Origin: Candidatus Thorarchaeota archaeon | GTDB lineage: Archaea > Asgardarchaeota > Thorarchaeia > Thorarchaeales > Thorarchaeaceae | Length of the DNA: 32,000 bases | Assembly (NCBI GenBank): GCA_003345555.1 | Contig: PRDJ01000057.1 | Span: 75,836-107,835 of the forward strand | Direction: 5' to 3' | In this document: in pieces, positions 2,620-26,462 of the stretch | Layout: each line of letters opens with the position of its first letter | Position numbering within the stretch: the stretch's first letter is position 1 | Made by a program: the position numbers and the translations under genes | Notes under the pieces: model-generated | The model's input: the letters and a program-made list of their open reading frames with translations, nothing else | Database searches by the model: none | What the model was told of the DNA's origin: nothing

Positions 2620-3069
2620 CTACTCAGCCGGGAGGTCGACTGTGCCGCCCTTGTTCTGAATCTTCTCTCTCGCACCGGGAGAAATCGCCTTAACGCCGGT
2701 AAGGTTCAGCTTGCGCGTCACCCTGCCCGAACCTAGAACCTTGTCAGCACCAAGACGGGCGACATCAACCGTGTAAGCACTTCCGGACTTGGTCGCGAGT
2801 CCTCGGCTAACAAGTCGGTCCAGAGACTCGTCAATCTCGCCTACATTGATGGTGGAGGGAAGTTTGAGGATGCTTTCCGGTCTCTTGAAACCATGCTTGC
2901 CAAAGTAGTGTGGATTGAGCTTCATGGTCCTCATTCTGTGATGTTTGTCAGTTCCGGCGTTGCCCATTCCACCTCGCTGACCCGCAGCACGATGACCCTT
3001 TGTATCGCCATAACCCGCGGTACGCAATCCTCTCAATGAACGAATCCTTTTCGACTTCCGCGTGTACAT
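2620..3069 (-). CDS. rpl15: 50S ribosomal protein uL15
   Basis: GHRAAGQRGGMGNAG, YFGKHGF, INVGEI, KVLGSG motifs. Confidence 0.97.
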   Translation of the reverse strand: MYTRKSKRIRSLRGLRTAGYGDTKGHRAAGQRGGMGNAGTDKHHRMRTMKLNPHYFGKHGFKRPESILKLPSTINVGEIDESLDRLVSRGLATKSGSAYTVDVARLGADKVLGSGRVTRKLNLTGVKAISPGAREKIQNKGGTVDLPAE

Positions 3070-23330: not shown

Positions 23331-24311
23331 GTGAAAGTGGGTCAGATGCATGGTTCGCCTGCCGGCAAGGGTACTCCGCCCCAGAATTCGCAGGAACCCA
23401 GCACCTGTCCCGAATGTGGTTCAACCTCTGTAGTTGAAGACGCGACCAGAGGCGAACGCGTATGTGGCGGTTGTGGCTTGGTCTTGTCCGACCACCGAAT
23501 TGACACCGGTGCCGAATGGAGAGCTTTCAGTTCGGAGGAGTCTGATGCCCGAAGCCGTGTTGGAGCTCCACTCCGATACACAGTGCATGACAAGGGCCTT
23601 ACAACGGTAATCGATTGGCGTGACAGGGATACAGCCGGACGAAAGCTCACACCCACGCGTAGGTCAGAGATTTATCGCCTTAGAAGGTGGCAGATAAGGT
23701 CCCGCGTTCACAGTTCCATGGATCGGAATCTGGCACAGGCGATGTCTGAGCTTGAGAGGCTGTCTTCCCAGCTTGGGATCCCAAAACAGATTCGCGAGCT
23801 GGCCGCACTCCTCTACAGGAAATCAATACTTCAGAAGCTGGTGCGAGGACGTTCCATCGAGGCCATGGTTGCCGCGACCCTGTATGCTGCATGCAGAATT
23901 CGTTCGAAGCCTCGCCCGCTGGATGAAGTGGCCGACACATCAAGGGTGGACAAGAAGAAGCTCGGACAATGCTATCGTCTTCTGTTGCGGAGCCTGGAAA
24001 TCAAGATTCCCTTGAGCAACCCCGTTGATTACATCTCAAGGTTTGCATCCGAACTCTCACTCTCAAGCCCCGTCCAGCTGAGAACGGTTGAGATACTCAA
24101 CCAGAGTCGTGACATGGGCCTCACCATTGGCCGCGACCCCCTGGGTCTCGCCGCTGCGGCGATATATGTAGCATCAATCATGATGGACGAACGAAGGACA
24201 CAACGTGAGATTGCAGAGGTTGCGAGGGTCACTGAAGTCACTGTGAGAAACAGATACAAGGAAATCGTTCGTGTCCTAGGAATCGACTCAATGACATTGA
24301 GTGCCCAGTAA
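23331..24311 (+). CDS. tfb: Transcription initiation factor B
   Basis: CPECG...C..CG Zn ribbon, EWRAFS, two cyclin repeats, VTEVTVRNRYKE. Start may be GTG at 23337. Confidence 0.98.
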   Translation: MKVGQMHGSPAGKGTPPQNSQEPSTCPECGSTSVVEDATRGERVCGGCGLVLSDHRIDTGAEWRAFSSEESDARSRVGAPLRYTVHDKGLTTVIDWRDRDTAGRKLTPTRRSEIYRLRRWQIRSRVHSSMDRNLAQAMSELERLSSQLGIPKQIRELAALLYRKSILQKLVRGRSIEAMVAATLYAACRIRSKPRPLDEVADTSRVDKKKLGQCYRLLLRSLEIKIPLSNPVDYISRFASELSLSSPVQLRTVEILNQSRDMGLTIGRDPLGLAAAAIYVASIMMDERRTQREIAEVARVTEVTVRNRYKEIVRVLGIDSMTLSAQ

Positions 24312-24426
24312 CCTGTTGTTAGGCTGCTCTGATTGTATTGGAAAAACCCATTCAATCACCGATCGTTTGAAGCCGTGGAGCCGATTGCCGGAAGTCGGCA
24401 AGCGACGGATCATACTGGTCTCAGAT

Positions 24427-24753
24427 TCACCTGTTAGCCCAATCTATCACAATTGCTGATTCAGGAAACCCTAGGCCGCTGAGAATGTCCTTGATTACTC
24501 TACGGTGGTCTCCTTGGAGCTCAACGTGACCTTCCTTTGCTGCCCCCCCGCAGGCCAGTTTGCTTTTGAGCTTCGCTGCAATCTGACCAAGGTCGGTGTT
24601 CTTGTCGAAGCCTTCAATCACGGTCGTCAAGCGACCCCATTTTCTGCGTTCTGCACTCACGGTTATCCTTGCCTCTTCCTGCGCGATTGTCTGACAGACA
24701 CACAGGTCCAGAGGCAAGCCACAGTTCGGACAAATGCTCTCGTCAGTACTCAG
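24427..24753 (-). CDS. sui1: Translation initiation factor aIF1 / SUI1, predicted CUG start
   Basis: ERRKWGRLTTVIEG, LKSKLACGG, ELQGDH. The conserved N-terminal ICPNCGLPLDLCVC knuckle lies upstream of the track TTG; a CTG at 24753 is preceded by AGGAG with an 8-nt spacer. Confidence 0.92.
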   Translation of the reverse strand: MSTDESICPNCGLPLDLCVCQTIAQEEARITVSAERRKWGRLTTVIEGFDKNTDLGQIAAKLKSKLACGGAAKEGHVELQGDHRRVIKDILSGLGFPESAIVIDWANR

Positions 24754-24813
24754 AGTATATTCTCCTTGCCATTCTTCCTTTCGGATTTCTGACCGGATGT
24801 GCTCAATTCCGAC

Positions 24814-24819
24814 ATATAA
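24814..24819. promoter_or_regulatory. Putative TATA (TTATAT on the minus strand) in the divergent sui1 / radical-SAM gap
   Basis: TATA-like element about 60-70 nt from both starts. Confidence 0.4.
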
Positions 24820-24884
24820 GCTTCTCCATCTTCTACCGCTTCAGCAAGAATAAAGAGAACAGTGAACCAACGCAAGAACGACAG

Positions 24885-26462
24885 ATGTCTAGCGTTCTAG
24901 TTGTTGATGCCCTGAGTTCAGGAACTGGTCGGCGACAGAGTTCAAGGGATTCCATAGGTTGTGGACCGAGAACTGTTGCAGGCGTCTTCGAGAAGCACGG
25001 CATCCGCTGCAAGATAGAGCGAGCTGAGGATCTGTCACTAAAGCGAGGAATCCTTCGACAATACCAACATCTCGCCATCAGTGCTATGACAATGGATACA
25101 CCCATTGTTCGACAACTAATCAACAGCTGGCGGCGGACCAAGGCGCACGGCAGGGTGTTACTGGGTGGACCAATCGCATCAGACCCACATCACATTCTCG
25201 TGGAACTCAAACCTGATGTATTGGTCATAGGAGAAGGCGAAACAACTCTTGAGGAACTCATCAACAAAGGCTACCTAGAGAGCGAAACGGACTTACGAGC
25301 TGTCAAAGGCATAGGATACACTGAATCTGGCAACGGTTTCGTAACGGAGCCTCGTCCGCTGTTGTCAGCTGAAGAGATTTCTGACCAATACAGGCCCTCG
25401 ACCACGCGTATTGTTGACTATACCTCCTACCAAGCAAGCAAGGTATATGTTGAGGTACTGCGAGGATGCTCGAACTTCAGACGGACTGTTCTCAGGCTGC
25501 CCGACGGGCGTCAATGCTCTGACTGCGGCAACTGTGAATCTGATGATTACACAAGAAGGCTCAGCTGTCCCGAGGATGTACCTCCTGGTTGCGGCTTCTG
25601 CAGTGTTCCAGCCACATGGGGCCCACCCAGAAGCCGGTCGATTATTGCGATTACCAAAGAGACGTCAGAGCTCTTGGATATCGGAGTAAGACGGGTTGTT
25701 CTTGAGGCCCCGGACTTCCTCGACTACATGAGAGGCCAGAACACAACGGATCCCTGCGAGCCTGCGGCTAACTTGGAGGCGATTTCAGAGCTCTTGGACT
25801 CTTTGGCGAGCATTCCACAAATCGCCAATGGCTCGGCTCATATTGGAATAGAGAACATGAAGGCCTGTCTTCTGACCGACTCTGCCGCCGAAGTAATATC
25901 GAGGCATTTGAGGACCGTTTCTCCGAACATAGGTCTCGAAACAGGATCAGCTGAGCATTTGCGCCGCATAGGGAAATGCGGCACACCAGAAGACGTAGTC
26001 CGTGCAGTCCGAGCTGCAAGAGCCCACGGAATGCATCCCTTTGTTTATCTAATCTACGGACTTCCCGGCGAGACCGAGGAGACCGTGAAGGAATCAGTAC
26101 GACTGCTGCAGGAAATCAGTCACGAAGGGGCCGAGAGAATAATCCTGTATGGCTTCCGTCCTCTTCCCGGTTCAGCGTTCGAGCACTTTTCGTCATCTTC
26201 CCTGAATAGTGAGCTTAGCCGCAAATTGCGTAGGGCAGCAGAGGCAGTCAATCGCAGCAAGAAGATGGAGTTTGTGGGAACCATTGTACAAGGTGTTGCA
26301 GCAGAGCCCTCATGGACTAGGCACGGCCACACGATGGTATATCCACTCGATGAAGGCCCGGTGATCACCGTCCAAGGTGGCTACTCCCCGGGCACTCTTA
26401 TCAAAGTGCGGGTGACTGGCGTGCTCAGTCCTGGCCTTGTCACAGGAGAAGTAGTGCGCTGA
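24885..26462 (+). CDS. B12-binding-domain radical SAM enzyme with Cys-rich insert and C-terminal TRAM-like domain
   Basis: LLGGPIA, LVIGEGE, VEVLRGCSN...GCGFC, GLETGS, YLIYGLPGET. Start moved to ATG at 24885. Confidence 0.88.
   Translation: MSSVLVVDALSSGTGRRQSSRDSIGCGPRTVAGVFEKHGIRCKIERAEDLSLKRGILRQYQHLAISAMTMDTPIVRQLINSWRRTKAHGRVLLGGPIASDPHHILVELKPDVLVIGEGETTLEELINKGYLESETDLRAVKGIGYTESGNGFVTEPRPLLSAEEISDQYRPSTTRIVDYTSYQASKVYVEVLRGCSNFRRTVLRLPDGRQCSDCGNCESDDYTRRLSCPEDVPPGCGFCSVPATWGPPRSRSIIAITKETSELLDIGVRRVVLEAPDFLDYMRGQNTTDPCEPAANLEAISELLDSLASIPQIANGSAHIGIENMKACLLTDSAAEVISRHLRTVSPNIGLETGSAEHLRRIGKCGTPEDVVRAVRAARAHGMHPFVYLIYGLPGETEETVKESVRLLQEISHEGAERIILYGFRPLPGSAFEHFSSSSLNSELSRKLRRAAEAVNRSKKMEFVGTIVQGVAAEPSWTRHGHTMVYPLDEGPVITVQGGYSPGTLIKVRVTGVLSPGLVTGEVVR

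Follow-up and report, generated by a model that had tools for sequence, protein, structure and literature searches.

A CUG start codon for the initiation factor aIF1 in a Thorarchaeota archaeon, a candidate site of autoregulation by a start-codon stringency factor

Where does translation of the archaeal initiation factor aIF1 begin in a gene whose reading frame offers no ATG, GTG or TTG ahead of the conserved N-terminus of the protein? And can an unusual start codon, placed on a factor that itself takes part in the choice of start codons, be a means of controlling the amount of that factor? Both questions are raised by a gene on the minus strand of the window, that is, of the whole 32,000-nucleotide stretch of DNA from an uncultivated Asgard archaeon (Thorarchaeota) analysed here.

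The aIF1 gene and its start

The frame is open between two TGA codons (24843-24841 and 24429-24427) and clearly encodes aIF1. Its translation matches the SUI1 family PF01253 with 60.9 bits against a cut-off of 25.5 and the NCBIfam model NF002096 with 123 bits against a cut-off of 98, and it is the single SUI1 (PF01253) match in the 2.28-Mb assembly, which is 93% complete. Moreover, the solved aIF1 of entry 4MO0, also present in 5JB3 and 5JBH, aligns with it from residue 3 of that protein (E 3e-28). The features of the locus are collected in Table 1.

Table 1. Features at and around the aIF1 gene, numbered from the first nucleotide of the window.
Feature	Positions	Strand	Remarks
aIF1/SUI1 coding sequence	24427..24753	minus	108 codons from CUG, plus TGA stop 24429-24427
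TGA closing the aIF1 frame upstream	24841..24843	minus	in-frame
Predicted CUG start codon of aIF1	24751..24753	minus	only near-cognate codon at Shine-Dalgarno distance
Shine-Dalgarno AGGAG	24762..24766	minus	8-nt spacer to the CUG
N-terminal zinc-knuckle codons, CPNCG...CVC (Cys8, 11, 18, 20)	24694..24732	minus	aligns with 4MO0
ATT, sense codon Ile7	24733..24735	minus	start in NCBI calls for some relatives ('MCPNCG...')
TTG, sense codon Leu13	24715..24717	minus	false start of mechanical ORF calls
Out-of-frame mini-ORF (ATG, 8 further codons, TGA)	24743..24772	minus	overlaps the Shine-Dalgarno motif and the CUG
Convergent TFB gene	23331..24311	plus	conserved synteny
Divergent radical-SAM gene, matched control	24885..26462	plus	ATG 24885

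A preliminary description of this DNA had reported that the frame upstream of the TTG at 24717 encodes the peptide L-S-T-D-E-S-I-C-P-N-C-G and continues into LPLDLCVC. This is indeed the case: translation from the CTG at 24753-24751 gives L-S-T-D-E-S-I-C-P-N-C-G-L-P-L-D-L-C-V-C, and the archaeal four-cysteine knuckle (CPxCG...CxC) is therefore present ahead of the SUI1 domain. The knuckle region pairs with EICPRCGLPKELCVC of 4MO0 (E-I-C-P-R-C-G-L-P-K-E-L-C-V-C), and in alignment A1 the knuckle cysteines, numbered there C2, C5, C12 and C14, are invariant. The characterised aIF1 proteins of Sulfolobus solfataricus, Pyrococcus abyssi and Methanocaldococcus jannaschii (4MO0, 5JB3) likewise combine a zinc knuckle with a SUI1 domain. 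Since the alignment to 4MO0 includes all four cysteines, the mature factor must contain the knuckle, and initiation at the TTG at 24717 or further downstream would cost two of the zinc ligands.

That TTG is the sole ATG, GTG or TTG codon in frame upstream of the SUI1 domain. The interval from the knuckle motif up to the next in-frame TGA had been described as free of these three codons, which proved correct, with the TGA placed at 24843-24841; none is found between this stop and the TTG. The AGGAG reported 8 nt before the CTG is also there, at 24766-24762. In a self-trained, crude start model built on 1833 genes of the assembly, G-rich sequence peaks at -14 to -8, and the AGGAG of the window, at -13 to -9, thus lies in the typical place for a Shine-Dalgarno motif. 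It is complementary to the CCUCCU in the 3' end of 16S rRNA, which in relatives reads ...GGATCACCTCCTA; no 16S rRNA gene was found in the window's own assembly, and the anti-Shine-Dalgarno sequence was for this reason taken from relatives. The 16S rRNA genes of several Thorarchaeaceae (G003, G022 and G007; at about 3025-3050 in locus L121, and in L122 and L125) carry insertions of about 25-100 nt that separate the conserved GCGGATGGA from the terminal ATCACCTCCT, and the gene of G012 (L123) is uninterrupted.

In 45 of 46 distinct Thorarchaeaceae genomes the homologous codon is again a CTG or GTG preceded by a Shine-Dalgarno motif, an arrangement beyond chance. We conclude that translation of aIF1 almost certainly begins at the CUG 24753-24751, and the earlier proposal that the gene starts there, and that the TTG chosen in the ORF track is not the start, is strongly supported by the position of the Shine-Dalgarno motif and by the orthologues.

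Two downstream codons could be thought of as starts. Such starts do occur in public records of relatives, some NCBI records opening with 'MCPNCG...' at the Ile codon before Cys8, and near-cognate ATT, ATA and ATC codons seem to serve aIF1 in the Asgard family f9, described below. Nevertheless, initiation at the ATT 24735-24733 or at the TTG 24717 is very unlikely here, as these codons lie 26 nt and 44 nt, respectively, from the Shine-Dalgarno motif and both lack a GGAG in front of them. The six residues that separate the CUG from Cys8 are conserved as protein, with synonymous changes, and are coding in the 31 GTG-type orthologues; the Ile7 codon itself varies synonymously between ATT, ATA and ATC in GTG-type and CTG-type genes alike. 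The ATT was rejected on these grounds. The TTG, which is Leu13 when the frame is read from the CTG and sits between Cys11 and Cys18, was rejected for its distance from the Shine-Dalgarno motif and for the two zinc ligands, of four, that a start there deletes.

The start region is also overlapped by an out-of-frame mini-ORF, seen only in the window and in the near-identical locus L003 and missing in L004 of the same genus. It is probably fortuitous, and the mini-ORF or a frameshift from its ATG at 24772 was rejected as a way into the gene because it is not conserved within the genus. An assembly or sequencing error, or a frameshift joining this out-of-frame ATG to the aIF1 frame, might come to mind with a metagenome-assembled genome and a mini-ORF lying over the start, and is exceedingly improbable. 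The CTG is also found in two congeneric genomes (L003 and L004, separate assemblies) and in 11 further Thorarchaeaceae assemblies, L004 lacks the mini-ORF, and the sequencing runs of a later study contain 0.91 of the sampled words of the stretch. Six sequencing runs contain at least half of these words; in the interval 24300-25000 no DNA contig from the runs could be placed, and the one RNA contig matches only positions 24300-24372.

RNA structure around the start (24709-24798, 45 nt on each side) was no better than that of shuffled sequences (z 0.11). A TATA-like CTTATATG, common to the window and L003, is located at 24813-24820 on the minus strand, some 63 nt ahead of the CUG. Were this the promoter, the aIF1 mRNA would have a leader of roughly 35-40 nt.

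The CUG start has a practical consequence for public gene annotation. GTG-type aIF1 genes are called at 112-114 aa, and the public calls for CTG-type genes are truncated ('MPMDLCVC...', 'MDLCVC...' or 'MCETIAQ...'), those that begin at the TTG or later missing the first two cysteines, or open with 'MCPNCG...' in some NCBI records. The call on record for the window's gene has 64 aa, and those of relatives, at 94-107 aa, lack part or all of the N-terminus. Since gene callers truncate such genes, the N-termini of aIF1 in the public records of these lineages are systematically incorrect.

Start codons of aIF1 and of other genes in Thorarchaeaceae

The aIF1 loci of the family were gathered by a whole-genome search and a scan of genome contigs. 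After removal of duplicates they represented 46 distinct Thorarchaeaceae genomes; all the genomes compared in this work are metagenome assemblies. The codon homologous to the CTG at 24753 is GTG in 31 of them, CTG in 14, unclear in one and ATG in none, the 14 CTG genomes including that of the window and two others of its genus (L003, L004). In genus g12 (L024, L190 and L192) an in-frame GTG, or in two of the loci an ATG, stands a few codons before the CTG, so that the three CTG starts of this genus are only probable. Locus L022 has a divergent N-terminus, and its start is either an ATT or a distant upstream TTG.

An in-frame stop is placed one codon before the CTG in five genomes (L006, L008, L012, L016 and L018) and immediately before the GTG in L017 and several others, and in many genomes a stop is found 0-2 codons upstream. 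Behind the start, the peptide S-D-E-G-G-I-C has been kept through synonymous changes of its codons, and the codons that precede the start are unconserved. A GGAG was present 8-12 nt ahead of the start in 34 of the 35 orthologues scored, and 21 of the 23 GTG genes have a spacer of 11 nt, compared with 8-10 nt in the CTG genes.

According to the start model, the genes of the assembly begin with ATG in 66%, GTG in 18% and TTG in 16% of cases, about 34% of starts thus being non-AUG. Against this background of 66% ATG, the absence of ATG from all 46 orthologues marks the suboptimal start of aIF1 as conserved. The preliminary description had proposed a comparison with orthologues as a test, and the outcome is in its favour: close orthologues never have AUG at this codon, and across Asgard archaea, aIF1 tends towards CUG, AUU, AUC, AUA and GUG. 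The weak start of aIF1 is in our opinion very probably maintained by selection.

A tree of the concatenated TFB, radical-SAM and aIF1 proteins requires about 4 changes for the distribution of CTG and GTG. An AU test did not reject a single origin of CTG in the family (p 0.09; 0.05 without L024), and repeated origin is claimed only between families and not inside Thorarchaeaceae.

The order of a divergent radical-SAM gene, aIF1 and a convergent TFB gene is kept across Thorarchaeaceae. The same order was found in Baldrarchaeum and Heimdallarchaeota records too, and TFB adjoins aIF1 in Methanomethylicia-like records as well. Among 34 Thorarchaeaceae loci in which the start of the radical-SAM gene was scored, 33 have ATG and a single one has TTG. 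In most relatives TFB probably starts with GTG or TTG, at a codon that follows a GG-rich stretch and lies 23 codons ahead of the CPECG zinc ribbon; a few genomes, including that of the window, have an extra ATG three codons further in. Among the other initiation factors, the aIF1A gene apparently starts with TTG and the aIF2-gamma gene with GTG, and the genes for aIF2-alpha and aIF2-beta start with ATG. The starts of aIF1A, aIF2-gamma and TFB mean that a weak start as such is not rare here, and that aIF1 is not alone in Thorarchaeota in keeping one. What is unusual is that ATG is wholly absent from aIF1 (0/46) while the neighbouring gene has ATG in 33/34 of the same loci, and that the codon can be CUG, which is rare as a start genome-wide.

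Among prokaryotes in general, an ancestral GUG start was replaced by AUG 202 times, by UUG 37 times and by CUG once, making the switch from GUG to AUG about 200 times commoner than that from GUG to CUG (PMC5622118). In our start model at most 7 of the 1833 genes had a confident CTG start; arbitrary control codons gave 3-5, so the enrichment of CTG starts in this genome is not significant on these counts alone. An earlier genome-wide count of CTG starts based on Shine-Dalgarno motifs was too noisy and was set aside.

Four of the CTG candidates of the model belong to genes whose Pfam domains begin upstream of the next canonical start, and comparison with orthologues confirmed two of these four. 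One is a vWA gene (G000:C66:17586-18713, plus strand), whose CTG stands behind GGAGTGA with a stop two codons upstream and no canonical start ahead of the MIDAS motif. A CTG start is shared by 8 genomes from 5 genera, in one of them shifted by one codon, and the other relatives have GTG or ATG. The other is a longin-domain (Fuz/MON1-like) gene (G000:C36:67738-69033, plus strand), for which 13 orthologues have TTG (8), GTG (3) or ATG (2) at the same codon. From these comparisons start codons appear to be evolutionarily labile in Thorarchaeota, the longin-domain and vWA genes included. The two confirmed CUG starts make initiation at the CUG of aIF1 credible. They also indicate that a CUG start is not reserved for aIF1, this lineage seemingly tolerating CUG in general.

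Further candidate CUG starts with Shine-Dalgarno-like motifs were seen in genes encoding an IorB-like protein of the POR family (G000:C68:12322-12939, minus strand), an ArsR-family HTH protein (C50:14265-14546, minus strand) and a radical-SAM protein (C10:60953-62677, plus strand). For the IorB-like and ArsR-family candidates, the nearest canonical start downstream falls inside the Pfam domain or shortly ahead of it.

A pattern search of the assembly for a tRNA with an initiator-type anticodon arm gave nothing convincing. ARAGORN listed 17 tRNA genes, of which only one, on contig C63, is a tRNA-Met, and it resembles an elongator (G1-C72). Many of the tRNA genes have introns, among them an odd tRNA-Leu(CAG) on contig C77 with an intron of 1628 nt. 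The detection of tRNA genes in this genome needs intron-aware tools.

Start codons of aIF1 in other archaea

Outside Thorarchaeaceae, the Asgard survey covered 64 genomes assigned to 22 family codes, which are labels of this analysis and not names; four families without the zinc knuckle were left unscored. The aIF1 start in these 64 genomes was ATG in 35, GTG in 6, TTG in one, CTG in 2 and ATT, ATC or ATA in about 20, the last being genes without a canonical start. A non-canonical near-cognate start is thus found in about one third of the Asgard genomes outside Thorarchaeaceae, in several unrelated sequence contexts. In family f9, represented by 15 genomes of 6 genera, the start is consistently ATT, ATC or ATA, and most members have an in-frame TGA four codons upstream, inside a AGGTTGTGA element; two f9 genomes have two copies of aIF1 each, both of the ATT/ATC/ATA type. 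In family f15 and in a Baldrarchaeum record the start is an ATA behind AGGAGG. The aIF1 gene of one locus of family f14 (L231) is likewise without a canonical start.

In other archaeal phyla the picture is unlike that in Thorarchaeaceae: 60 aIF1 loci could be scored, and 48 of them, those titled Methanosarcinales and Thermococci included, start with ATG, 7 with TTG, 2 with GTG, 1 with CTG and 2 with ATA. Five of the seven TTG loci are Methanomethylicia-like and two are haloarchaeal. The CTG locus is from a Hadarchaeota record and has a stop two codons upstream. Given the 48/60 ATG, the near-cognate start of aIF1 is lineage-specific rather than universal and does not follow an archaea-wide rule.

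Possible feedback on the synthesis of aIF1

How could such a start act on the level of the factor? In the mechanism that we propose, the aIF1 mRNA would be leadered, and the AGGAG would pair with the 3' end of 16S rRNA and put the CUG in the P site, where the initiator Met-tRNA would read it with a mismatch in the first position; because of this mismatch initiation is expected to be inefficient. aIF1 would in turn destabilise initiation complexes formed on non-AUG codons. Binding near the P site and this destabilising activity are assumed for Thorarchaeota aIF1 by orthology. In S. solfataricus, aIF1 permits binding to the 30S subunit of an mRNA with AUG but not of one with AUU, and the aIF1 of P. 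abyssi contributes to fidelity within the initiation complex (PMC4705826, PMC6237735). We infer from this published aIF1 biochemistry that initiation at the CUG would be of low efficiency and would depend on the level of aIF1. If aIF1 rejects non-AUG complexes, initiation on the aIF1 mRNA would become rarer as the factor accumulates and more frequent as it grows scarce. [quoted passage not shown]

True feedback through the proofreading activity of aIF1 itself, which the preliminary description had suggested for this gene, seems to us slightly favoured by what is known of the locus and of the factor. This reading is tempered by the fact that about 34% of the starts in this genome are non-AUG and that CUG is used in at least two unrelated genes. 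It also counts against feedback that most relatives in Thorarchaeaceae use GUG, an ordinary start codon. Furthermore, a static low set-point without feedback would be expected to leave an identical sequence pattern. The CUG or GUG could be real and selected, behind a strong Shine-Dalgarno motif, for a low and fixed rate of initiation to which aIF1 contributes no feedback. Other genes here have weak starts with no obvious link to stringency (TTG or GTG in TFB, TTG in aIF1A, GTG in aIF2-gamma and CUG in the vWA genes of 8 genomes), and the spacer of aIF1 tracks the codon, 11 nt with GTG and 8-10 nt with CTG, which resembles the tuning of a fixed rate. We regard such static attenuation as rather unlikely, since it leaves unexplained why CUG, AUU, AUC and AUA, rare genome-wide, recur on aIF1 in several lineages, and because the published discrimination of aIF1 against non-AUG codons makes some dependence on its level hard to avoid.

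Relaxed start choice may even have let the aIF1 start wander between GUG and CUG by neutral drift, with no selection for weakness. The large share of non-AUG starts in the genome and the ease with which the vWA and longin-domain genes change their start codons speak for this, and one GTG to CTG event in the family is compatible with the AU test. Against it stand the complete lack of ATG in 46 genomes where the background would have 66%, the ATG kept by the neighbouring gene in 33 of 34 loci, the occurrence of ATG in genes with labile starts, for example the longin-domain gene, and the general preference of changing GUG codons for AUG over CUG by about 200:1. Drift is for these reasons an improbable explanation.

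We return to the feedback reading, for which two systems outside archaea offer a comparison, each with a start-codon proofreading factor that gauges its own activity by way of a deliberately poor initiation site. In E. coli, infC, the gene for IF3, reportedly starts at AUU and is subject to translational autorepression (Butler 1987; Sacerdot 1996). The likeness is that a factor rejecting non-canonical starts itself begins non-canonically behind a good Shine-Dalgarno motif, with the odd codon conserved in relatives; Asgard family f9 even has AUU or AUC on aIF1. The differences are that IF3 and aIF1 are unrelated proteins and that the Thorarchaeaceae codon, CUG or GUG, mismatches in the first position and that of infC in the third. 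Taken strictly, an infC-type start would be AUU, AUC or AUA, and the gene in the window has CUG, with GUG and CUG in its family. It does have a suboptimal initiation site of its own, a CUG with no canonical alternative upstream of the knuckle. Codon discrimination by IF3 is cited in PMC5622118.

Eukaryotic eIF1 has a conserved AUG in poor context and negative autoregulation (Ivanov et al. 2010, PMC2964218, as cited in PMC6237735). The eukaryotic factor is an orthologue of aIF1 with the SUI1 domain, and in both the suboptimal site is located on the mRNA of the stringency factor itself. They differ in that eukaryotic ribosomes scan and the weakness resides in the Kozak context of an AUG, whereas in aIF1 the ribosome is placed by the Shine-Dalgarno motif and the weakness lies in the codon. 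Those Asgard families that are closest to the Hodarchaeota record (f21) have AUG in our sample, and direct inheritance of an eIF1-type arrangement is therefore not indicated. The P. abyssi study recalls the autoregulation of eIF1, the start of the aIF1 gene being outside its view (PMC6237735). In the literature that we searched, which included reviews of start-codon selection and of archaeal initiation, no non-AUG start of aIF1 was found and no autoregulatory loop based on start proofreading was described for archaea; absence from these sources is not proof that such a description does not exist.

We may go further and suppose, quite speculatively and with considerable doubt, that Asgard archaea keep start-codon stringency in homeostasis by means of a near-cognate start of aIF1, a solution reached repeatedly, and that Thorarchaeota have a small CUG regulon besides. 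If this is true, the start would take the form of CUG or GUG in Thorarchaeota, of AUU, AUC or AUA in a Lokiarchaeia-like family and in Baldrarchaeia, and of CUG in another family, and the arrangement would be the functional equivalent of eIF1 autoregulation in eukaryotes. The vWA and longin-domain genes, and perhaps the IorB-like and ArsR-family genes, would then form a regulon whose expression rises when the activity of aIF1 falls. The aIF1 loop, if real, would add archaea to the cases known from bacterial IF3 and eukaryotic eIF1.
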